In this document: positions 4,902 to 63,300 of the stretch, in pieces | Position numbering within the stretch: the stretch's first letter is position 1 | How the letters are laid out: every line of letters begins with the position of its first letter | Assembly: GCA_016209525.1 (NCBI GenBank) | Contig: JACQWK010000220.1 | Span: forward strand, 32,842-96,841 | DNA: 64,000 nucleotides | Reading direction: 5' to 3' | Origin: Verrucomicrobiota bacterium | GTDB lineage: Bacteria; Verrucomicrobiota; Verrucomicrobiia; Limisphaerales; SIBE01 | Translations under genes and position numbers: made by a program | The notes under the pieces: generated by a model | Database searches by the model: none | Seen by the model: only the letters and a program-made list of their open reading frames with translations | Told to the model about the DNA's origin: nothing

Positions 4902-5861
4902 TTACTTTCCCGGGATTTTGCTCGTCGCACGCTGTTGAAGCCAGACCACGTCTTTATTATTCGGAGAAGCGACGTTCAAGGGAATGGTTTGACCTTTCCT
5001 CAGCTTCGGAGTCGTGCGTGGATCAAGCCACTTCTTGATCTCCGCGTGACCATCGGCGAAGGAAAATCCAGCCGCCCCATTGTGGTAGCTCGCTGGATAA
5101 TCGACAATCTGGGTCACGGCCGGATTGGGATACCCACTCATCTGCGTGACCCAGAATCCATCGTTTATGCTGTCCTCGCGTTCATCCATCAGCACCCAGG
5201 TTTGAGAGGGCCCAGGATCCGTCATGTGGCTGAGCTTCCTAAACACGGTCCAAATCCCGGCAGGCCACCCGTCCTGTGTGGGTCCGGGCAAGAAAGCCAG
5301 CTCTCCATTCCCTCCGACAAAGTTGTTCATCGACATACTCCTCACTCGAGGCACCATCCGGCCTTGGAAAGGGCCCGAAGTCGGTTTTACCATGCTCTGG
5401 TCCGCCGGGCATTTGAAAATCCCGGCCGATCCACCGCAATAGGGCCAGAGAGGACCTTTTTGAATGTCGCGACTGACGTCCCGGTTCGAGGCATTGCCGC
5501 CATCGAAGTTCAGCGAACTGGTTCCCACAAAACCATGCCTAGACCCGTAACCATGGACAACTTCCTCGTCGTCGTCCTCGGCGTACATTCTCCAAGCCAG
5601 CATCATCTGCTTGTTGTTATTCATGCACATGATGCCTTGCCCTTTGGCTTTCGACTTCGCCAAGGCAGGCAGAAGCATGCCCGCAAGAATCGCGATGATG
5701 GCGATCACCACTAGCAATTCAATCAAAGTGAAGGCTTCACGCCCAACGGGGAGGAAATTGCTCCGGGTCGTCGGTAATGGCAGTGGCGGGCATCCCCGCC
5801 TTCCGTAGAGCCGGGGCGTCTCGCGCGGAGCAGGCGGGTCGGAAGAATTCAGGTTGTTCAT
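4902..5861 (-). CDS. Prepilin-type N-terminal cleavage/methylation domain protein with H-X9-DG motif
   Basis: [42 protein letters not shown] and HNGAAGFSFADGHAEIKKW. ORF runs 4902..5948; likely start is ATG 5861. Confidence 0.85.
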   Translation of the reverse strand: MNNLNSSDPPAPRETPRLYGRRGCPPLPLPTTRSNFLPVGREAFTLIELLVVIAIIAILAGMLLPALAKSKAKGQGIMCMNNNKQMMLAWRMYAEDDDEEVVHGYGSRHGFVGTSSLNFDGGNASNRDVSRDIQKGPLWPYCGGSAGIFKCPADQSMVKPTSGPFQGRMVPRVRSMSMNNFVGGNGELAFLPGPTQDGWPAGIWTVFRKLSHMTDPGPSQTWVLMDEREDSINDGFWVTQMSGYPNPAVTQIVDYPASYHNGAAGFSFADGHAEIKKWLDPRTTPKLRKGQTIPLNVASPNNKDVVWLQQRATSKIPGK

Positions 5862-5951
5862 ACCACTTGTCCGGTGCGTCTGCCGGTTTCCCTGATTGCC
5901 CCTGGCGTGTGCTACAGTTCGCGCGTCAGGGATTGGTCGCAGGCTCAACCG

Positions 5952-10251: not shown

Positions 10252-11820
10252 ATGGCATTCGACTCCTTCCGGGAATTCGTCAACCAAGTGGACCGCGCGG
10301 GCGAACTCATCCGCATTTCCCAACCGGTCGCCACCGAGCTTGAGATCACCGAACTGGCCGACCGCCAGATGAAATCGTCCGGCGGCGGCAAAGCGTTGCT
10401 GGTCGAGAAGCCCACGCTGAACGGACAGATTAGCCCATTTCCCGTGGCCATCAACACGCTCGGCTCCTGGAAACGCATGGCCATGAGCATGGGCGCCAAT
10501 TCCGTGGATGAGGTCGCGGCCGAGCTCGGTTCGCTCATGAAAGCCAAACCGCCCACATCTTTCAAGGAAGCCATCAAGCTCCTTTCGACCGCCCTCGATC
10601 TCCGCCACGCCAAGCCCAAGCTCGTGAAAGACGGTCCCTGCAAAGAAGTGATCCACAAATTCGACGCCCCGGTTACACGCACCGATCCGTGGCCGAGCGC
10701 TCCACCGATTACTGATCCACTGATTACTGATCACTCGGCCGTGCGAAGTAATCAGTATTCAGTAATCAGTAACCAGTGCCCGACCCTGCTCAACCTGCCG
10801 ATCCAAAAATGCTGGCCCCTCGACGGCGGACGCTTCATCACCTTGCCTTGCGTCGTCACCCAAGATCCCGATACCGGCGAGCGCAACGTCGGCATGTATC
10901 GGATTCAAATCTACGACGACCGCACCACCGGCATGCACTGGCAACTCCAGAAAGTCGGTGCCCGACATGGCCGCCGTTACTACGAAACGGGCACCCGCAT
11001 GCCCGTTGCCATTTTCCTCGGTGGCGACCCCGTCTTTACTTTCGCCGCGACCGCGCCACTGCCCGACGGCCTCGATGAATTCCTCCTCGCCGGCTACCTG
11101 CGAAAAAAATCAGTGGAACTAGTCCGATGCGCCACCTGTGATTTGGAAGTGCCCGCGAACGCCGATTTCGTCATTGAAGGCTACGTTGATCCGCGCGAGC
11201 CGCTGCGCGAGGAAGGCCCGTTCGGCGACCACACCGGCTACTACACGCTGCCCGAGCCGTATCCCGTCTTCCACGTCACCGCGATCACGCATCGGAAGGA
11301 TGCGGTCTATCCGGCGACCATCGTGGGGATTCCGCCCATGGAAGACTTTTACATTGGAAGCGCCTCGGTGAAGCTCTTCCTGCCGATCTTTAGGATGAAC
11401 TTCCCGGAGGTCGTCGATATGGCGCTGCCTGCGGAAGGCGTGTTCCACAACCTCGTCTTTGTGAGCATCAAGAAGACCTACCCGATGCAAGCCTACAAAA
11501 TCATGTACGGCCTCTGGGGCATGGGCCAAATGATGTTCACCAAATACATCGTGGTGGTGGACGACGACGTGGATGTTCACAATACAAGTGAAGTGCTGTT
11601 CCGGCTGTGTGCGAACACAGACCCCCAGCGTGATTCCATTTTCACCAAAGGGCCAGCCGACGTTTTGGACCATGCTACCTCTGAAATCGCCATCGGGACA
11701 AAGCTGGGAATAGATGCTACGCGCAAACTCGCCGGTGAAGGATTCCAAAGACCGTGGCCGCCGTTAATCAAAATGGATGAAACCGTCAAACAAAAAATTG
11801 ACCACCTCTCCAATCGCTGA
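10252..11820 (+). CDS. UbiD-family (prenyl-FMN dependent) decarboxylase, menaquinone/ubiquinone biosynthesis type
   Basis: MAFDSFREFVNQVDRAGELIRISQPV.., CWPLDGGRFITLPCVVTQDPDTGERNVGMYRIQIYD..TGMHWQ, GPFGDHTGYY. Carries an atypical insert (see the repeat at 10707). Confidence 0.9.
   Translation: MAFDSFREFVNQVDRAGELIRISQPVATELEITELADRQMKSSGGGKALLVEKPTLNGQISPFPVAINTLGSWKRMAMSMGANSVDEVAAELGSLMKAKPPTSFKEAIKLLSTALDLRHAKPKLVKDGPCKEVIHKFDAPVTRTDPWPSAPPITDPLITDHSAVRSNQYSVISNQCPTLLNLPIQKCWPLDGGRFITLPCVVTQDPDTGERNVGMYRIQIYDDRTTGMHWQLQKVGARHGRRYYETGTRMPVAIFLGGDPVFTFAATAPLPDGLDEFLLAGYLRKKSVELVRCATCDLEVPANADFVIEGYVDPREPLREEGPFGDHTGYYTLPEPYPVFHVTAITHRKDAVYPATIVGIPPMEDFYIGSASVKLFLPIFRMNFPEVVDMALPAEGVFHNLVFVSIKKTYPMQAYKIMYGLWGMGQMMFTKYIVVVDDDVDVHNTSEVLFRLCANTDPQRDSIFTKGPADVLDHATSEIAIGTKLGIDATRKLAGEGFQRPWPPLIKMDETVKQKIDHLSNR
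10707..10774. repeat. Palindromic ACTGAT-unit element embedded in-frame in the UbiD-family CDS
   Basis: Left arm GATTACTGATCCACTGATTACTGATCACT. Right arm AGTAATCAGTATTCAGTAATCAGTAACC (imperfect inverted repeat). Translated as PITDPLITDHSAVRSNQYSVISNQ. Confidence 0.7.
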
Positions 11821-12039: not shown

Positions 12040-12316
12040 TCAACTGGCCGTGAATCCCAACGGGATTCCGTCCCAAAGCCCAAGGTAGCTCGCTCCTCGC
12101 AACCTTGGGCTAGAGGCCACAATCCCTTTGGGATTTCCCGGACACGTTTCCCGCCAGACCAACTTCATGTTGCATATGCAACAATAGTTTGTCCTGTGTC
12201 ACGCGCGGATGAACGTGCGCAATTGCCGGCCGGCTCCACGCTTCGCTGGTTAGCAAAGGCGGATTTCAGATGCGCCGGCCTCCTTCGGGGCTGATTCAGG
12301 ATTCGCATGAACGGCC

Positions 12317-12386
12317 GTAGCCGCCGAGGTGACCAGGCGGACATTGTTGCCAGCGCGGAAATCCGCCTCCTCACGGCGGCGGCTAC
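12317..12386. repeat. 70-bp hairpin element, family 1 copy a
   Basis: GTAGCCGCCGAGGTGACCAGGCGGACATTGTTGCCAGCGCGGAAATCCGCCTCCTCACGGCGGCGGCTAC; the two arms are complementary. Confidence 0.8.
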
Positions 12387-12499
12387 GGATTCTTGAATCC
12401 GCCCTCCAGTCTCCTCCCAGCGACGATTCCAAAGCTCGACAGGGCAAAGCCTAGTTGTCACACTGGCCGTCGTTAGCACGGAAGCGCAGCCAGACCCAA

Positions 12500-17110: not shown

Positions 17111-17171
17111 TACTCAAAGTGTATCAGTAAAATCCCTCCCCTTGCAGCAGCCGAGGTAACAAGGCCCTCTC

Positions 17172-17199
17172 GAAATTTCAGATTTCAAATTTGAAATTC
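17172..17199. repeat. AT-rich near-palindrome (EISNLK-type REP) between convergent genes
   Basis: GAAATTTCAGATTTCAAATTTGAAATTC. Confidence 0.55.
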
Positions 17200-17249
17200 T
17201 TGAGTCGGAGCATCCTTGCGTCGCCTGCTCCGATTCTGAAGGCGGACTC

Positions 17250-18933: not shown

Positions 18934-19074
18934 CGTCTGACCCGTCACGCTTTGCTCCCAGAGCCGACGCTGGAAGAAGAAACCACGAATGAACGCGAAG
19001 CGACACGAATCAGACAGGTCGATGATCGCTTCGGGCCATTGCGACCGCGCTCATCGTTTGGCGAGCCTGTCTCG

Positions 19075-19856
19075 ATGCTGCAGAGACCAAAAGAAGGCCG
19101 GGTTTCATCCCTGCACGTGAAGCTACTTGCCGCGCAAGTCATCGGCGTCATCCCTGCGCGCTACGCATCCACCCGTTTTCCGGGCAAACCCCTCGCGCTC
19201 ATCGCCGGTAAGCCGCTCATTCAACACGTCGTTGAGCGCTGCCAACAAGCCAGTTCCCTCTCCGAGGTCATCGTCGCGACCGATGACCCTCGAATCCGGG
19301 AGGTCGCCCGACGATTTTGCCGGGTCGAAATGACCTCGCCGAATCACCCCAGCGGATCGGACCGGGTGGCGGAAGTCGCGAATCGTCGCGCATGCAATGC
19401 GGTGGTCAACATCCAAGGTGACGAGCCGTTGATCGAACCAGCCGTGATTGACGCGGTCGTGGCCGCGCTCAACCAAGCTGAGATGTCCACCGCAGCGACT
19501 CAGATCCGTGATCGGAAAGAGTTGGACAATTCCAACGTCGTAAAAGTCATTGTCAATTCTTCCGGGCGGGCTCTATATTTCTCCCGTCGCACCATTCCGT
19601 ATGTGCGAGATGCCGCCAGTCGTTCGCTCGAAGAGCAGTTGGCGGCGTTTCCATTTTTGAAGCATTTGGGCATTTACGGATACCGGCGGGAAACTTTGTT
19701 GAGGCTGGTCCAATGGCCGGTCTCACCGCTGGAACAAGCGGAAAAATTGGAGCAATTGCGGGCTCTGGAAAACGGGATTGCCATTGCGGTGGCGCAGGTG
19801 GATTACGACGGCGTCGGCGTGGACGTGCCGGATGATGTGGAACGGGTGGAAGCACT

Positions 19857-19869
<13 letters not shown>
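19075..19869 (+). CDS. kdsB: 3-deoxy-manno-octulosonate cytidylyltransferase (CMP-KDO synthetase)
   Basis: VIGVIPARYASTRFPGKPLALIAGKPLIQHV .. NIQGDEPLIEP. ORF runs 18952..19869; ATG 19075 gives the canonical length. Confidence 0.9.
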
Positions 19870-21573
<1,704 letters not shown>

Positions 21574-29271: not shown

Positions 29272-29325
29272 TCGATACGGTGCGTTGTGAAACCACCTAA
29301 TACCTGGCAAACCGGAGCCGCAATC

Positions 29326-29470
29326 AAAATCCGAAATCCGAAGCTCGGAATCCGAAACAATTCCCAACCTCAAACGGGGTTGCGGTTAAGTCGCTGGGGT
29401 AGAGAACACCAGCAGGTGATCCAACGTCGCGTTTCCTTTCACTGGCCCTCTCCCCAGGGGGAAGGGGGAA
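29326..29470. repeat. REP elements between ctaC and the SCO gene
   Basis: AAAATCCGAAATCCGAAGCTCGGAATCCGAAAC (29326-29358) and a CCCTCTCCCC..GGGGGAAGGGGG hairpin (29444-29470). Confidence 0.55.
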
Positions 29471-38872: not shown

Positions 38873-38929
38873 ACAGTCCGAGGCGAGCCTATTGTGCAGT
38901 TCATAACTATCCCGACCTTGCAGCATGCC

Positions 38930-39204
38930 CCTCACCCCAGCCCTCTCCCCATCGGATGGGGAGAGGGTGGCCGAAGGCCGAGTGAGCGGTATCGTCTTAC
39001 TTTTGAACTCATTAATAGGTTTTTTCGTTCTCTTCGTCGCGAAAAAAATTCTTCAGACAGAATCTCAGCAGGGATGCATCAAGCTCACCGAATCCTCCCT
39101 CTCCTCCATCGGATGGAGGAGAGGGTCGGGGAGAGGAGGCGCCTTTTTGTTGGTTTCCCCTCTCCTTGTTCCTCTCCCCACTCGTTCCTCGCGGGGAGAG
39201 GATG
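38930..39204. repeat. Cluster of CCCTCTCC..GGAGAGGG hairpins (LTPALSP..GER-type REP)
   Basis: CTCACCCCAGCCCTCTCCCCATCGGATGGGGAGAGGGTGG (38930-38969); CTCCCTCTCCTCCATCGGATGGAGGAGAGGGTCGGGGAGAGG (39084-39136); CCCCTCTCC..CGCGGGGAGAGGATG (39157-39204). Confidence 0.75.
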
Positions 39205-49646: not shown

Positions 49647-50054
49647 GTGGTCGAGACGATTTCCCCAGAGTTCGCTCTCGTGCGTACACCGGAGAAGCTT
49701 TACCAACAACTGGAAGCAGCCGAGCAGGTGCCGCTCAGGATTCGTCACTCGGAAAACGCCTTGGCAGCGCCGCCAGATGTGCGGAGCCGTGTGGCGCCCA
49801 GCGCTACGCCGCCTCGCGCTGCCGCCAAAAAGCCGGCCAAAGTCCGGCGAAGCGTTGAGACCACGCTCTGGTTCTCCGACGCAGAAGCCCACGCCGCATT
49901 CAGCAAGCTGCTGCTCGATGCCAAATGCGTGGTTCCAACCGATTCGCACGCCCTCACCGTCAGCTACCCAAGGAAAGCGGAACCGCTAGTCAAAGAGTGT
50001 CTGAAAGAACTCAACGAACAGTTTGCGGTGGCAGTGGAAGATATCGAGAAATGA
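49647..50054 (+). CDS. Uncharacterised protein D; same frame as C and probably its severed C-terminus
   Basis: GTG 49647 is in frame with C, separated only by TAG plus 8 sense codons. It continues the module (VETISPEFALVRTPEKLYQQLEAAEQVPLRI), followed by a basic linker (AAKKPAKVRR) and a small terminal domain. Confidence 0.5.
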   Translation: MVETISPEFALVRTPEKLYQQLEAAEQVPLRIRHSENALAAPPDVRSRVAPSATPPRAAAKKPAKVRRSVETTLWFSDAEAHAAFSKLLLDAKCVVPTDSHALTVSYPRKAEPLVKECLKELNEQFAVAVEDIEK

Positions 50055-50132
50055 CCTCAGCAAATCTTCGCCGCCGCTTCCCTGCGTGAGCGGAACGAGC
50101 TAATGAGATCTCGTCTGTCCCTAGACTCGTGG

Positions 50133-50560
50133 CAGTCGTTCATGAAGGCCGCCGAGCAGTTCCCGCGTGCCTTGGGACCATGAACCGGGTTGGAGCGCCG
50201 GCCTCCGGCCCGGCCCGTTGCGATCCAGTGCCGGTTTCGCGCCGGGCCGGAGGGCGGCGCCCCGGTTCATCGAGATCCTCCAAGCCCTCGGGGCGTGCCT
50301 GGGGACCGTGAACCGAGAATGGGCCCGGAGCGCGGGCGGCTCGCCCGCACCTTCGGACCAGGGCGAGAAACTCGCGGGCGAGCCGCCCGCGCTCCAATCA
50401 GGCGGTTCATGGAGAGCCTCCAAGCCCAAGAGGCGTGCATTGGGACCATGAACCGAAGCCGCCGACGTGAGGAGGCGGATATTGGTTTCACCCACGTCTT
50501 CCGCTTCGTTACCTCGGCGGCTGCGAACCGTCGGTTCAAGGAGAGCGCCCACGCAACAGC
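50133..50560. repeat. Array of stacked REP hairpins
   Basis: Three to four units of CGGTTCAT..N..GGGACCATGAACCG (50133-50186, 50263-50315, 50403-50455, partial from 50532). They are interleaved with a perfect 22-bp inverted repeat (GGAGCGCGGGCGGCTCGCCCGC 50327-50348 / 50374-50395) and family 1 copy c (50455-50524). Confidence 0.8.
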
Positions 50561-50898
50561 ACGGTAGTAAGGGGCCAGTATCAACCGGGCGACGACGGCC
50601 AGCGCTTTCTCGTGAACATTCTGAGTGAGCAAACGGCCGCACCGCGAACGCTCACCGTCGTGCTGAACTGGGCGTCGCTCGTGGAGAAGAAATGATCGGC
50701 GCCCGTCTGAAGAATCATAGCCGTCGACGTGCGGAGGCTCTGGACGATCTGCAATTCTAAATTGGAGATTTCACATTCTCGGTAAGGCGAAGCGTCCCTG
50801 CTGAGCCGGTCACGCAACATGGCTTCAAAAACTTGTCGGCTCGCCGGGACGGACTCGCCCTACCGCTTAGAATGCTGAATTTAACAGTAGTGTACACG

Positions 50899-51068
50899 GG
50901 CCCTCTCCCTTGGGGAGAGGGAGGAGTGTTCACTGCGGCTCGACCAGGCGGACCTGGGCAGTTTTTCCATACGCGAGCGGTGCTGTTTCCCTCTCCCTGG
51001 GGAGAGATCGCAGGATAGATTGCATTTCCTTCCCCCTCACCCCGGCCCTCTCCCCCGGGGAGAGGGAG
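50899..51068. repeat. Three CCCTCTCCC..GGGGAGAGGG hairpins
   Basis: 50899-50924, 50989-51006 and 51036-51068 (CTCACCCCGGCCCTCTCCCCCGGGGAGAGGGAG). Confidence 0.7.
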
Positions 51069-51297
51069 AAACGTTCGCCGCAGCTTGGCTGTGCGTGGCT
51101 CAACGATTAACCAACTGCGCGAGGAGGGCGACGGATTCGTCGTAGGCGGCTTTGTAGGTGTAGTCGGGCGGGCCGTCGCAGGTGGCAAGGCGCTTGGCTT
51201 CGGCGGCGTGGTGCAGGGCGGTCTCGCGTTGGGCGGGAGTGGCGCGCTTGATGGCCTCGCTCAAGGTTTCCGGTAGGGGCGCGTTGCCGCGCGTCCC

Positions 51298-53064
51298 TTA
51301 TATTTGGGCCGAACGGCAGCTTGGCCCTACCGAGTAGAAGTCCAGGGCGAGCTTGGAGAGTTCGAGGTGAGCGTCCGCGCCTTGCAGGACGTAGCCGCTG
51401 CGCTCAGTGATGAGCAGCGCCTCCTCGGCCAAGCGCCGGGCCTCGTCCGGCGCGCCGGTGACGGCGCGCAGCCGCGCCAGGTCAATGAGGATGTTGGCTT
51501 CGTGGTCCACCATGTTGATGCGGCGGCAGCGTTCCAGCGCTTCGTGCAGGTGGCGCTCGGCTTCGTCGTGCTGTCCGGCGACGCGATGGGCCGCGCCCAG
51601 CAGCCAGTGGGAGCGGATGTAATCGCGCGCGTTTGGACGGTCGGTGCGTGCGTCCTCATCCGCCAGTTCCAGTGCGCGGCGAGCCAGCGGGATTGCCAAT
51701 TTGCGATTTGCGATTTGCGATTGCCGAAGCTCCATCTCGCGCAGCGTGAGTAGTTCGCGAAGGGCGCGGTGGGCAGAGTTTACACCATGCCCTTGCAGAT
51801 TCTCGCGCCAGACCTTGATCTTCAGCGCCGTCGCCAGTTCCATTTCCGATTTATGGTATACCCCGCGGTAGGCCAGAAGCCTGCCCAATTCCTGGTGCCC
51901 AATCGCCTCATGCCACTCGTCCTTGATCTCCCGGCTAAGCGCGAAGCGGCGGCGCAGGTTGGCCTCGGCGTCCCGCAGCGCGCCAATGGGCATGCATGCG
52001 GCGTAAGCAACGGCCCCCAAGCCGATGGCGAGGTTGCGCTTGTCGCCGTGTCGCTCGCGGATGGCGTTCGACTGCTCGTACAGCGGCACGGCGCGGCGGG
52101 GCTGGCCACTGAGGCTGTAGGCGTTCGCAAGTTCGTTCAAGGCGTGAGCTTGATCGCTTTCGTCTTCCAGGCGTGGCAGGGGTTGTTCGCCTCCAGGGAA
52201 GAGCGCACGCAGCAGGTCAATTTGAACGAGGTAGCCGCCAAGTTGGTAGTAAAGCGTTTGCCAGATTCTGTCGCGAAAAAGCGTCCACGCCTCGTCAAAC
52301 TGTCCGGCGCGGACGGTGTGGTGATAGAGTTCGATCACCGGGGCCAGGTCTTCCAGGCTCTTTACCTTGTCCGGCCGGGGCACGGCGGCGAAGTAATCGC
52401 GCAGGCGGACGTGGGCGGCGGCGCGATCGGGCGCGGCCAGCCGGTCGTAGGCATAGCGGCGCACGATGGGGTGCAGGTCGAACCGGGCCTCTTTGGTGTC
52501 GTGGTGCAGCAGCCCGCGCGCGACGAGATCGCGGAGGTCGGTGTCGAGGTTCGCCGCATCGGAGCGCCGGTCTCCGACCCGGCCCGCTGCCGGACTGGAA
52601 TCTCGCCGGGCCGGAGGCCGGCGCTCCGACTCCGGCGGCTTGCCCACCGCGGTGAGGAGCTGGCGCCAGGCGATATCAAAGTCCGCGCCCTCGGTGAAGT
52701 CGATGTGAGTGAGCGCCGCAATGAAGTCCGCATCCTCGGGGAAATCGCATGGCCGAAAGAGTAGAGGGATGGTGCGCGACTCACGTCCGGAAGGCTTTCC
52801 TTGCCGGCCAAGCAGGCCTTCGAACATCGTCCATTCGCTGGCGAACCAGTCCTTCGAAATGACCAGCAGGCTGCGGCGGCTGCGGCGGACGGCGTCCTGC
52901 ATGTTGAGCAAGGCATTTCGACCAGCCTGGAAGTCACGGAAATCAATGCATACCTTCAATCCCGCTGTTTCGAGGCGCGGCAGCAGCTTCCCCCTCACCC
53001 ACGCCTTGTCGCGGCTGCTGTACGAGATGAAGACATCGAACTCGTATTCCGGTTGGTCTGGCAC
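51298..53064 (-). CDS. TIR domain - winged-helix - TPR protein (no NTPase domain)
   Basis: ORF 51298..53094; GTG 53064 has a GGAGG 7 nt upstream. TIR region: EYEFDVFISYSSRDKAWVRGKLLPRLETAGLKVCIDFRDFQAGRN..RRSLLVISKDWFASEWTMFE. STAND-type WH: LRDLVARGLLHHDTKEARFDLHPIVRRYAYDRL. About 380 aa of TPR-like helices follow. No GxxxxGK[ST] anywhere. Confidence 0.85.
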   Translation of the reverse strand: MPDQPEYEFDVFISYSSRDKAWVRGKLLPRLETAGLKVCIDFRDFQAGRNALLNMQDAVRRSRRSLLVISKDWFASEWTMFEGLLGRQGKPSGRESRTIPLLFRPCDFPEDADFIAALTHIDFTEGADFDIAWRQLLTAVGKPPESERRPPARRDSSPAAGRVGDRRSDAANLDTDLRDLVARGLLHHDTKEARFDLHPIVRRYAYDRLAAPDRAAAHVRLRDYFAAVPRPDKVKSLEDLAPVIELYHHTVRAGQFDEAWTLFRDRIWQTLYYQLGGYLVQIDLLRALFPGGEQPLPRLEDESDQAHALNELANAYSLSGQPRRAVPLYEQSNAIRERHGDKRNLAIGLGAVAYAACMPIGALRDAEANLRRRFALSREIKDEWHEAIGHQELGRLLAYRGVYHKSEMELATALKIKVWRENLQGHGVNSAHRALRELLTLREMELRQSQIANRKLAIPLARRALELADEDARTDRPNARDYIRSHWLLGAAHRVAGQHDEAERHLHEALERCRRINMVDHEANILIDLARLRAVTGAPDEARRLAEEALLITERSGYVLQGADAHLELSKLALDFYSVGPSCRSAQI

Positions 53065-53139
53065 GAATTTACCTCCGACCTGATGGGCTCCCAAGGCTCA
53101 TTGGAATTGTATGATAAACATCCCTGCGGGCGCCGCCGA

Positions 53140-60258: not shown

Positions 60259-60307
60259 GTGCCCGCTCCTTCCTGCCGGTGAATGTTTTTTCGCCGTGTG
60301 TCTTGAC

Positions 60308-60340
60308 TGAAATCTCAAATTTGAAATCTCAAATTTCAGA
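60308..60340. repeat. Tandem/palindromic GAAATCTCAAATTT element overlapping the sensor-kinase stop codon
   Basis: TGAAATCTCAAATTTGAAATCTCAAATTTCAGA. The last residues of the kinase (..SEI*) are encoded by it. Confidence 0.6.
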
Positions 60341-63300
60341 GGGCCGGCCCGATTCACGTTCTGCGCAGGCGCTTTTGACTCGCCCCTGATCCAGGCATTC
60401 GCGAATCGTGTCGAGCAAGGTTTGGGGGAGGTATGGCTTCGGCAAGTAACTAACGCCTTCTCTAAAATGGAACCGCCCGCTGGACAGCTCCTGACTGTAG
60501 CCGCTGGTAAAAATCACTTTCAGATGCGGCGCTTCGCGTTGGAGGATTTCGGCCAGTTCAAACCCGGAAATCCCTCCGGGCATCACCACGTCCGTCAGCA
60601 ACAAATCGATCTGACCTGCTTGGTTGCGCCAGATTTGTTCCGCTTCAACGGCGGTTTGGGCGGCAAAGACTCTGTACCCGCTGCTGGTCAGGAAATCCTG
60701 AAGCAGGGCGCGGACCGATGCTTCGTCTTCAACCAACAGAATTCTCCCGTTGCCGAGCCGCATCGACCGAGCCGCCGCGAGGGGAGGCTCCGCCGCTTGC
60801 TGCTCGGAACACGGCGGCAAAAAGATTTGGAAAGCCGTTCCTTGGCCGATGGCGCTCTTCACTTGAACCCAGCCCGAATGCTGTTTGACGATCCCATAAA
60901 CCGTGGCCAATCCCAGACCCGTGCCCTTGCCAATCTCCTTGGTCGTGAAGAAAGGCTCGAAAATGCGGGGGAGCATCTCGGGCGGAATGCCGCAGCCGGT
61001 ATCCGACACTTCGAGCACAACCGCCAACCCCTGCCGTGCCTCCGGATTCTGTTGGGCCGCCGCTTCGCTGATTTCCACGCGGCCGGTGGCGAGGCGGAGA
61101 CGGCCTCCGTGCGGCATGGCATCGCGCGCGTTGACCGTCAAATTTAACAGGACTTGTTCGAGCATGGTTCGGTCGCCTCGCACCGGCGGCAAATCGCGCT
61201 CGCCACTGAACTCCAGCTCAATCTGTTCACCGAGGACGCGCCCCAGCATCTTCATCAACTCGCGCGTCACTTCGTTCAGATCCAGAACCCGAAGTTGCAT
61301 CCGCTGTTTGCGGCTGAAGAACACCAACTGGCGCGTCAGGGTCGCCGCGCGATCGCTGGCTTCAAGAATCGCCGTCGCCAGGTTGGCCTGCGCCGGGCTG
61401 GTCTGCTCGTCCGAGACGAGGAGCGATGCGTTGCCTTGGATGATGGTCAGGATGTTGTTGAAATCATGAGCCACACCTGCGGCGAGTTGGCCTACCGATT
61501 CCATCTTTCGCGCCTGCTGGAGTTGATCGAGTTGTTGCCGGATCACTTCGGTTTGCTTCCGGACGCGCCGACGCAAGGCCATCGCCCACCCCAGCGCGAG
61601 CGCCAAAACTCCGGTCATTCCTCCCACCACCGCGAAGACACGCTGCAAGGACCACCAGGACGGCGCGCGCAGCAGTCCAAGATCAGCCAAGGAAGGGACC
61701 AACAGCCGGAACGACCGGACCTCGCGCCACTCATCCACTTGGAGTTGGCAAATGCCGGTCACTTGCAGAAGGCTGCCGGCGCGGAATGGCTTCAGTTCGG
61801 CTGTGGTCTGCGGCGTCTCGGCCATCGCCTTGAAGATAATGCCCGCGTCTTCCAAAACCAATTCCAGCGTGTTCGGTCCGGAGAGACTTTCGATCAGCCG
61901 GGCCTGGAGGCGCACACGCTGGGCATCATTGGTGCCTTTGAGCAAGACACTCGCGGCCGCCTCGACGGGAGCCGGCAGCGTTCCCGGGCCCAGATGTTTG
62001 AATTGCACTTTGTCAAGCATCGGTGTGTATCCGCCCACCACCGGAAATCCCAATGCGTCCACGAGTTCGCCAACTTGGACCTCATTTGTCCGTCCAGCCT
62101 GGATGCGGGTGCCGCCGCTGTCGTCCTGAAGATAAACGGAGCCGTCGGGCCGGACCAAGGTGACGACGCCCCGAACGCGCACGCGGTGTTCGAAGATATC
62201 CTGCGGCGTGAAACGAAGCAGGTCCCGGATCGGAATAGCACCGGCCGCGAAGGGATCTTCCGGGCTCGTGCGCAGAAACTCTGCCTGAGACCAATCCGGC
62301 ACATGAAGGTTGATCCCGGTCAGTTGCCGGTAAACGTTCGCCAAGACGCCGCAGGCGCCTCGCACCTTCAGTTTGGAATCAACCAGCCGAGGCTGCAGTG
62401 CGCCCGGCGGCGGCACGGGCACGGTCACCTGAAACGGCCCGGTCGGCGCCTTGAGTTGCAGGATCCAATGCCGGCCATTGACCTCGACCGAGCGCACGAC
62501 GCCGATCTGCTCGATCCATTGGCTGTCTTCGCGTCCGGTGGTCAGATTCTCCAGAGAGATTCGCTTCGCCTCGGGCCATTGACCCGGCCCGAGCACGCGC
62601 AGTTTCACTCGGGTAACCATGGGCGCATAGCCGCCGGGATCGCTCGCGCCGGAGACTTCGATCTGCTGGCCGGTTTCCAGCAAGAATTCCTGGTCCGCCG
62701 AATCGACGTAAATCCCGCCGGTCTGGTCGTGCATGAACAGCACGCGCCACTCGCGGTCGTAGTAGGTCGCGACGCCGTTCAAGTGAACCGGATAGCCGCG
62801 GCGGGCCTCCTCCGGCGAAAGATTCCGCAGCTCCTGCACCGTGCGCAAAACCGGCAATTCAGATTGGGGCATCGACGGCGTCGAGGAAGAGGTGTCGCCC
62901 AGGACTCGAAAGACGCCGGCCTGCAAAAACGGCTGGCCGTCTTCGCCCAGGCGCGGAAAGCCGGCAATGTCGAGCAAGTCCCCCGGCCGCGTCTGCGTGC
63001 GCAATTCCGATCGTACGAGAATCGATCCCGAATCATCCTGAACTCGAAGCCATTCGCCGAGTTGTTGCTCAAGCAACCGGCCTCGAACATGCAGACGCCG
63101 GAGGTCCGGCCCGCCGAAATTGGGAGCTTTGACTCGCTCCTTCACCTCGGCAACCCGCGTGACGGGCAGTTGCAGCGGATCCCCCCGTTCGCGCTCCAAC
63201 ACGACCAGATCCTCCAAGGACGGGACAAAGAATTTCAGCGGCCGCGGCTTGGTTGGGTCCGGCTGCCAGGAGGCATTGACGCCATGGACGATCACGACAG

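Follow-up and report, generated by a model that had tools for sequence, protein, structure and literature searches.

The DNA described here is a stretch of 64,000 nt (the window; 58.9% G+C) from a contig of a Verrucomicrobiota bacterium (JACQWK010000220.1, positions 32,842 to 96,841 of the forward strand), in which the gene for a UbiD-family decarboxylase contains, in frame, a hairpin made of two inverted arrays of a heptameric unit. An earlier note, made from the letters of the window, had described an in-frame imperfect inverted repeat at 10699-10780 and had taken it for a mobile or structured element resembling repetitive extragenic palindromic (REP) sequences. Comparison with orthologues goes beyond that note, as many unrelated hairpins and arrays are found at the same site. 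What recurs is the site and not the element, and the linker that holds it is a hotspot for structured repeats rather than the scene of a one-off insertion. For the hairpin itself we favour, with about even confidence, a vertically inherited palindromic heptamer microsatellite lying in a permissive, disordered, lineage-specific linker and changed by slippage and arm-to-arm templating under a filter for reading frame and stop codons.

Anatomy and translation of the hairpin

The whole hairpin, as predicted by a minimum-free-energy RNA fold, spans 10697-10779 (plus strand, as are all of its parts), with an outer stem of GCGCU and AGUGC that uses conserved Ala-Pro codons. Its left arm (10703-10735) consists of ATTACTG and ATCCACTG units in a 15-nt period equal to five codons (ITDPL), and was reported by Tandem Repeats Finder (TRF) both as 4.6 copies of CACTGAT at period 7 and as 2.1 copies of the 15-mer (94%). 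The apical loop seen in the folds (CGGCCGTGCGA, 10736-10746) is followed by the right arm (10747-10778), an AGTAATC array read as SNQYSVISNQ, which TRF placed at 10747-10777 with period 7, 4.4 copies and 87%. Both arms have the form of a heptameric simple sequence repeat (SSR), defined as at least three head-to-tail copies of a 7-nt unit, and ATTACTGAT occurs twice in the window, both times within the hairpin, where 0.18 occurrences are expected. A repeat search recovered inverted arms of 18 nt (10718-10735 and 10761-10778, 89% complementary) together with several further register-shifted inverted pairs, as tandem units would give. The 91-nt stretch around the arrays folds as RNA at -33.7 kcal/mol, against -15.8 +/- 2.8 kcal/mol for dinucleotide shuffles (z -6.3, equalled by 0 of 200), and as DNA at -15.8 kcal/mol (z -4.7). 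The inverted repeat of the earlier note is thereby confirmed by TRF, by the inverted pairs and by the fold. A known RNA family was rejected as a candidate, an Rfam search of the hairpin having returned only two miRNA-precursor matches (19.3 and 17.6 bits, where the gathering scores are 95.5 and 197), as was an intrinsic terminator or promoter, for which no site was predicted at the hairpin.

The hairpin is translated in frame as ITDPLITDHSAVRSNQYSVISNQ, in the protein context ...WPSAPPITDPLITDHSAVRSNQYSVISNQCPTLLNLPIQKCWPLDGGRFITLP, and its two arms depart from perfect arrays in ways that keep the frame open. A perfect ATTACTG array would read ITDY*LL and a perfect AGTAATC array SNQ*SVI, placing stops in both arms. 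The 7+8 = 15-nt period of the left arm leaves a single stop-free frame and avoids the TGA of a pure ATTACTG array, and the right arm has TAT where the perfect array would have an in-frame TAA. Orthologues carry TAT or TCA at this right-arm codon position, or the stop-free unit GTCATCC instead. The stop-free arms, with their 7+8 period and the change of TAA to TAT or TCA, therefore indicate that the segment is translated and that the repeat has been shaped by the reading frame of the enzyme. Removal of the segment as an intein or intron is ruled out by the same strict upkeep of frame and avoidance of stops.

The host open reading frame (ORF; 10252-11820, plus strand, 522 aa) matches Pfam UbiD_N, UbiD and UbiD_C and scores 582.5 bits against NCBIfam TIGR03701 'menaquinone biosynthesis decarboxylase' (cut-off 495.9), which places it among the UbiD-family decarboxylases of the menaquinone/futalosine type; the TIGR03701 match falls in two stretches, divided at the insertion. 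An AlphaFold2 model built from a diverse alignment (mean predicted local distance difference test score, pLDDT, 91.5; predicted TM score 0.88) has E. coli UbiD structures as its top Foldseek matches (5m1d, 5m1c and 2idb; target-normalised TM 0.84-0.92), and the protein is accordingly predicted to have the UbiD three-dimensional fold. This model replaced one made from an alignment of close relatives only, which at a pLDDT of 50.6 was unusable.

The hairpin lies in a lineage-specific linker insertion (approximately residues 135-176; 10654-10779), the first part of which, KFDAPxTRTxPWPxAP, is kept within the clade. A phmmer comparison with E. coli UbiD aligned query residues 1-135 and 170-518 and left 136-169 unaligned. 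In a MAFFT alignment with 14 diverse homologues (36-60% identity), drawn from a search of 1.84 billion cluster representatives, the segment corresponds to a 37-column gap in all 14. The earlier note had expected alignment with UbiD homologues to expose an insertion of ~25-38 aa, and ~37 residues at the hairpin site are indeed missing from homologues of ≤61% identity. Residues 151-180 are the sole low-confidence part of the AlphaFold2 model (10-residue blocks with mean pLDDT of 58, 45 and 64), and DSSP assigns coil to residues 137-178 except for one 3-residue helix call. The linker is thus lineage-specific, and is predicted to be disordered and inter-domain. The proposal of a structured repeat that sits in a loop of the enzyme and leaves its frame intact is supported.

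The linker as a hotspot among orthologues

Variation at this site was followed in an orthologue series of ~200 Limisphaerales-type sequences (72-89% identical). This was done through the 120 closest proteins, which share 81-93% identity over the aligned part and of which the named ones all derive from Verrucomicrobia or Limisphaerales metagenome-assembled genomes (MAGs), and through an 81-locus set made up of the window and 80 loci from GTDB species representatives. In the 120 proteins both flanks are near-invariant, and the stretch between WPxAP and PTLLN differs wholly in sequence and length (20-108 residues, counted from directly behind the WP codons through PTLLN); the 80 species-representative loci show the same pattern of invariant flanks and variable loop. 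In the window this hypervariable segment, delimited by the alignments of the 120 proteins and 81 loci, runs from 10705 to 10779 and is filled by the ACTGAT hairpin. Among the ~200 orthologues it holds at least 15 sequence types, which include heptamer or octamer arrays, array hairpins, GTAG-tagged elements resembling REP doublets forming hairpins (REPINs) and other GC-rich palindromes. All of these fillings are in frame, with a full-length tblastn match and an intact ORF in every orthologue locus checked. A period-7 array is present in 24 of the 81 loops and a period-8 array in 4 (28/81 in total, against 0/81 control segments of the same length from the same gene), and loops with a hairpin at z ≤ -3.5 are found at ~10 of the 81 loci, against 1 control. 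The loop is short and unstructured (APDWQKGTSPNPPTLAN) in ~10 species. Diversification of the type driven by diversity-generating retroelements was considered and ruled out, the variation being whole-segment replacement and unit slippage and not A-specific mutation.

Loops filled by heptamer arrays cycle through three reading phases, so that (TCAACCT)3 is read as STFNLQP, (CAATCCG)3 as QSAIRNP, (AATCTCA)3 as NLKSQIS, (TCAATTC)3 as SILNSQF and (TCATTCG)3 as SFVIRHS; the loop of L067 contains ~19 units of CCGATCY. Other loops hold palindromes that also occur elsewhere. That of L013 is a GTAG...CTAC REPIN-like element with 18 matches at other places, including window positions 12315-12388 and ~50454-50525; that of L120 is a GTAG-tagged double hairpin; and that of L121 has a perfect 23-bp stem, an arm of which recurs at L009:20061-20086. 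The loops of L001 and L025 contain long elements with GGGGAGCGC-type terminal inverted repeats matching window positions 50327-50395, and loop elements of the 'SPSPGGEGRGEG' type match 38928-38967 and 51034-51078.

The other end of the gene also varies among these loci. Partial second ubiD 3' ends, spanning approximately residues 452-521 at 58-79% identity, closely follow the intact gene in L001 (2485-2694), L009 (11652-11807), L016 (12230-12334) and L041 (2837-2950), and lie downstream of it in L019 (11607-11711 and 16421-16537); in L009 a GC-rich palindrome stands at the junction of the partial copy. These copies suggest repeated rearrangement or integration at the ubiD 3' end.

Of the 120 closest proteins, 18 carry the ACTGAT element, always at the same codon position; it was absent from the loops and flanks of the 80 species-representative loci. 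DNA of eight further distinct orthologue sequences (L081 and L084-L090) carries the same hairpin, vertically inherited within one lineage and with arrays that change along the way: extra 15-nt ITGSL units lengthen the left arm of L085 and of L090, L087 has a right arm homogenised to (GTCATCC)x4, and in L084 the hairpin has decayed. Such change of copy number and unit between close relatives (L085, L090, L087) is consistent with slippage and is typical of SSRs. Neighbour-joining trees of the core protein and of the core DNA are star-like, with ~18-21% DNA distance between most pairs, and on them the ACTGAT-bearing (type-A) sequences form three neighbouring groups, interspersed with other loop types. 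Repeats can be collapsed or joined into chimeras in MAG assemblies, and an artefact of assembly or annotation, or a chance low-complexity stretch, might be suspected. Several independent assemblies, produced by different studies, nevertheless share the element at one and the same codon position, the ORF is intact at all orthologue loci checked, and the fold has a z of -6.3; an artefact is effectively refuted because the orthologous copies are independent, and we give it next to no credence.

Formation, conservation and possible mobility of hairpins

According to the explanation that we favour, two inverted tandem arrays of a TTACTGA-type unit would constitute a palindromic heptamer microsatellite, inherited vertically within a sub-clade of Limisphaerales-like Verrucomicrobia and read out as a low-complexity peptide that would have no catalytic role and no required function. 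Replication slippage would add, remove or homogenise units, templated copying from arm to arm would preserve complementarity, and the host gene would act as a strict filter, eliminating variants that shift the frame or acquire a stop. The linker would be a hotspot in which arrays, array hairpins and dispersed palindromes (GTAG REPIN-like and others) arise or land, displacing each other.

Sister loops suggest how such structures may originate in place. TCAACC[CT] arrays (L003, L005, L014 and L048) directly abut the conserved TLLNL codons (ACCCTGCTCAACCTG), with which they have ACCC in common, and match a TCAACCT a few bases downstream in the conserved flank, as expected if they were seeded by slippage from the flank. 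In L014, L004, L024, L044, L009, L016 and L018, the conserved KFDAPPTRTEP codons have given way to a left arm that is complementary to the array of the right arm, either at the same length (HLVESSKFQVES) or with one additional residue balanced by the loss of one downstream (KFQDSSFRPGTV), and the resulting hairpins straddle the WPxAP codons (z -3.9 to -6.9 in L004, L009, L016 and L044). We infer from the replacement of arms with little or no change in length that these arms were formed by templated conversion and not by insertion. A precedent may be quasipalindrome template-switch mutagenesis, studied by Ripley and by the Lovett laboratory, by which an imperfect inverted repeat reportedly has one of its arms re-copied from the other; it is said to have been described for point changes and short templated changes in laboratory reporters, and we know of no description of it as the builder of ~30-nt array arms in natural genes. 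Template switching of this kind would fit both the length-neutral arm replacement and the pairs changed on both sides in the ubiD loops.

The principal competing view of the origin is that a pre-formed mobile hairpin, resembling a REP or a miniature inverted-repeat transposable element (MITE) and perhaps moved in trans by a transposase of the Y1/REP-associated tyrosine (RAYT) type with hairpins as its target, was inserted in frame in the ancestor of the sub-clade; the site would be a hotspot on account of an existing hairpin drawing in the next element. In its favour are the dispersed palindromes at exactly this site in L013, L120 and L121 and the presence of RAYT-like genes in the lineage: a 151-aa Y1_Tnp gene lies ~2 kb downstream of ubiD in L081-83, L001 and L022 (L081 13430-13885; L001 4110-4562; L022 3680-4132; copies 90-95% identical), and a frameshifted, degraded one is present in L084 (11954-12260). 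REP and REPIN elements are short imperfect palindromes that form hairpins, in which Opitutus terrae (Verrucomicrobia) is rich; GTAG- and CGTC-tagged REPs occur within genes, and recB of two Xanthomonas species contains different REPs at the same site (PMC3733652; PMC3116915). The ubiD hairpin resembles them as a hairpin-forming palindrome, and GTAG REPIN-like elements fill the loop in L013 and L120.

The element in the window nevertheless differs from REPs in its length of ~80 nt and its composition of tandem units. For lack of a GTAG tag it does not count as a classical REP/RAYT system: neither GTAG/CTAC nor CGTC/GACG was found at the ends of 10697-10779. No RAYT gene was found in the window by tblastn with the L081 RAYT-like protein. 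The many dispersed copies that characterise REPs and REPINs are likewise lacking, provisionally, in the searched DNA: the 64-kb window, which is the part of the source genome covered, contains no second ACTGAT copy, and a unit 18-mer allowing ≤3 substitutions had no match outside the orthologous site in 1.45 Mb of related DNA. The arms are inverted, as in a MITE, yet a related transposase is not known, and the flanks (GCTCCACCG ... CAGTGCCCG) show no direct target-site duplication. A perfect copy of the element would moreover have put stops in both arms and broken the reading frame, and in sister loops arms are seen to have formed in place at an almost or wholly constant length. The claim of a REP-like mobile element that colonised the gene is not supported by these observations on copies, tag, the RAYT gene in the window and the stop-bearing perfect array. 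The earlier note had itself reasoned that the lack of other copies in the genome, or the sharing of the insert by unrelated lineages, would count against it; on the former, the evidence from the window and the 1.45 Mb leans to no other copies, and on the latter, the ACTGAT sequence is limited to the sub-clade.

Similar arms do occur outside the gene. In metagenomes, the pattern CTGATTACTGA-N10-40-TCAGTAATCAG was matched by 29 stretches, none in ubiD and most of them intergenic-looking, of which ~12 are GC-rich contigs with arrays on both arms; L116 alone is clearly similar to Limisphaerales loci (55-61% aa) and is probably verrucomicrobial. These ACTGAT-array hairpins at 29 places could be members of a dispersed family, as an insertion would predict, or independent hairpins sharing a unit. 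Their number is about what many independent heptamer hairpins of arbitrary unit would yield, and none shares the flanks of the ubiD locus. On balance we regard insertion of a pre-formed mobile hairpin as rather doubtful. One metagenomic contig (L117, 59% G+C) contains, at 5684-5898, three tandem 84-nt copies, each with an ACTGAT-type array hairpin.

Once formed, the stem is conserved as nucleic acid. This was measured on seven collinear type-A orthologues, a small set in which the low-complexity arms can inflate apparent identity. Across them 82% of pair cells are standard pairs, against 17-46% in slid registers, and seven pairs are changed on both sides, a number reached by 2 of 500 shuffles. 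Mean pairwise identity is 92.4% at codon positions 1 and 2 of the core gene and 63.2% at position 3, compared with 75.6% in the hairpin arms and 62.1%, approximately the synonymous rate, in the apical loop. Paired columns of the hairpin are 79% identical at any codon position (80, 81 and 77%) and unpaired columns 62%; as the paired columns are conserved regardless of codon position, it is the nucleic acid rather than the peptide that is constrained.

This conservation supports a selected cis-acting stem, in mRNA or DNA, at the domain boundary. An mRNA stem at the border between the N-terminal segment and the barrel that binds prenylated FMN (prFMN) would slow ribosomes or alter mRNA decay, and the various elements in orthologues would be interchangeable suppliers of a stem. 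It would also accommodate the closest relatives, in which strong hairpins make up almost all of the loop types with DNA read (A, B, C, D, L and O), and the independent formation around WPxAP of hairpins with different units. Most of the 81 loci, however, lack a significant hairpin, z ≤ -3.5 being reached by only ~10 loops, and ~10 species have the short, unstructured APDWQKGTSPNPPTLAN loop; the whole segment is missing from homologues outside the clade; neither an Rfam match nor a terminator or promoter signal marks the hairpin; the pairing statistics come from only seven sequences with arms prone to inflated identity; and hairpin-prone repeats are common in these genomes anyway. We consider a selected stem rather unlikely.

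Several of these observations weigh against a vertically inherited microsatellite formed in place. To judge from the sequences of L013, L120, L121, L001 and L025, which have dispersed palindromes at the same site, insertion does happen there. The ACTGATT unit, unlike that of the TCAACC arrays, does not resemble the flanking conserved codons, which makes an origin in place presumptive for the ACTGAT element. The same-arm hairpins in the 29 metagenomic stretches may point to a dispersed family. Stem columns (79%) are also more conserved than synonymous sites (63%), unlike what pure neutral drift with unbiased arm-to-arm correction would produce, which hints at selection on structure. A broader reading, which we put forward tentatively, is that throughout an order of Verrucomicrobia the linker serves as a standing 'hairpin slot', continually refilled in frame by unrelated hairpin DNA (palindromic heptamer or octamer arrays formed in place through slippage and templating between arms, GTAG REPINs and other palindromes). 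The cause would be either selection for a hairpin at the domain boundary, in mRNA or DNA, or a frame-preserving replacement directed by the hairpin already present.

Related repeats and wider significance

Heptamer arrays are a property of these genomes and not of ubiD alone. A TRF survey of arrays with at least 3 copies in 1.34 Mb (the window and the 80 loci) found period 7 to be the commonest, with 59 arrays, ahead of period 6 with 47 and of periods 8 (17), 9 (16) and 5 (6). Of the 76 period-7/8 arrays, 26 lie in ubiD loops, which together amount to ~8 kb, a density ~85x that of the remaining sampled DNA. Every array has a unit of its own, and about a quarter of those outside ubiD have an inverted partner nearby. 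Assigning coding status by longest ORF over-counts arrays in genes, as GC-rich DNA yields long spurious ORFs, and on inspection only two genes other than ubiD contain convincing arrays. One is a gene of the window (ORF 51298-53094, minus strand), in which a perfect (ATTTGCG)x3.4 array at 51699-51722 lies in frame between TIR and TPR domains and is read QSQIANRK. The other is a helicase gene of L028, with in-frame arrays of AAGCTCC (20718-20749) and ACCCGAA (20795-20821) reading KLQVPRTKLQA and IPETRNPKSE, which probably sit in the inter-domain linker before the helicase domain of a PriA-type helicase, as identified from motifs. The ACCCGAA array matches the ubiD loop array of L015.

Three intergenic elements of the window, at 17172, 29326 and 60308, had been likened to the ubiD hairpin. 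The likeness stands for architecture, in that they are tandem 7- or 8-mers and sometimes inverted, and not for sequence, and only some of them fold well. All three are heptamer arrays at gene ends: AAATTTC at 17173-17198 (fold of 17150-17225, -24.2 kcal/mol), AAATCCG at 29327-29357 (29305-29375, -10.0 kcal/mol) and AAATCTC at 60308-60338 (60285-60355, -14.6 kcal/mol). The AT-rich units AAATCTC and AAATCCG recur, exactly or with 1 base changed, among the translated units of ubiD loops from other species. The best architectural match to the ubiD hairpin in the window is at 19857-19949, between a cytidylyltransferase gene (18952-19869) and the next ORF, where octamer arrays of the GTTAAAGC and ACGCTTCA types occupy both arms, 19840-19965 folds at -51.4 kcal/mol and 34 nt are 88% similar to the in-frame ubiD loop of L002.

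Other palindromes of the window have counterparts at the sampled loci. Downstream of ubiD, a palindrome with 37-nt arms (AATCCCAACGGGATT...; 12053-12135) resembles the flanks of the L081 RAYT-like gene, and a GTAG...CTAC REPIN-like element (12315-12388) is of the same family as the L013 ubiD loop. A region of ~1.2 kb without a credible gene (50054-51298), whose two ORFs have no Pfam match, contains GC-rich palindromes at 50192-50263, 50327-50395 (with a perfect 22-bp stem), 50454-50525 and 50988-51067, which share families with the ubiD loops of other species.

Heptamers are, in the summaries that we draw on, the most over-represented class of long SSR in bacteria, for which polymerase slippage has been proposed (PMC4692102, PMC4679880, citing Mrazek 2007). 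GGGAATC repeats in Xanthomonas also occur as inverted arrays able to form stem-loops (Rehm 2015, PMC4692102), and TAACTGA repeats are found in Beggiatoaceae, Cyanobacteria and Bacteroidetes, where reverse repeats translate to LSVISYQ (MacGregor 2015, PMC4679880). The ubiD arrays share with these heptameric SSRs (Mrazek 2007; cyanobacterial short tandemly repeated repetitive sequences, STRR; TAACTGA; GGGAATC) 7-nt head-to-tail units and fast change of copy number and sequence between relatives, and over-representation relative to other periods is common to bacterial heptameric SSRs and the arrays of the sampled Limisphaerales DNA. The TTACTGA unit of the ubiD hairpin is 1 base from TAACTGA, and its SNQYSVIS resembles LSVISYQ (PMC4679880). 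Known heptameric SSRs, however, are overwhelmingly intergenic or at ORF edges, whereas both inverted arms of the ubiD hairpin are in frame in mid-enzyme with stops removed, and the same codon position is, unlike theirs, a hotspot across an entire order. Our literature search found no description of heptamer repeats for Verrucomicrobia.

Rickettsia palindromic elements (RPEs), according to a summary of the original studies, are palindromes that lie in frame in housekeeping genes, are translated and are tolerated at positions compatible with the fold (PMC10969869, summarising Ogata 2000, 2002). The ubiD hairpin is like them in being palindromic and in frame within a conserved gene, in a linker predicted to be disordered. 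As summarised there, RPEs form dispersed families of ~100-150 bp with conserved sequence and tens of copies per genome, and are not tandem heptamers; the ACTGAT peptide and DNA are restricted to the orthologous ubiD site rather than dispersed in several genes, and with no second copy known it is the site that recurs and not the element. Borg elements carry fast-evolving nucleotide tandem repeats that lie in frame in ORFs and encode low-complexity disordered segments (PMC9879509). Borg repeats are direct only, with unit lengths that are multiples of three, whereas the ubiD unit of 7 nt is read in three alternating phases and its arrays are inverted into a hairpin.

Rickettsia has been the chief source of examples of palindromic DNA lying in frame in housekeeping genes, and heptamer microsatellites are known chiefly as unexplained intergenic oddities. 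The hotspot is the larger finding, and the case combines heptameric SSRs, Rickettsia palindromic elements and intragenic REPs. Here a heptamer-array hairpin is translated within a conserved enzyme, and the 7+8 period and stop-removing point changes reveal how it copes. The orthologue series, with its ~200 sequences and at least 15 fillings, amounts to a natural experiment in how a tandem array becomes a palindrome, by way of arms that overwrite conserved codons. It bears as well on how fast structured repeat DNA turns over and on whether nucleic-acid structure within a coding sequence can be conserved on its own account, separately from the protein. Annotators should note that the 'low-complexity loop' in these proteins comes from reading through repeat DNA and not from protein innovation. 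If the linker is indeed a slot for hairpins, structured repeat DNA would write and rewrite a protein segment of a conserved enzyme.

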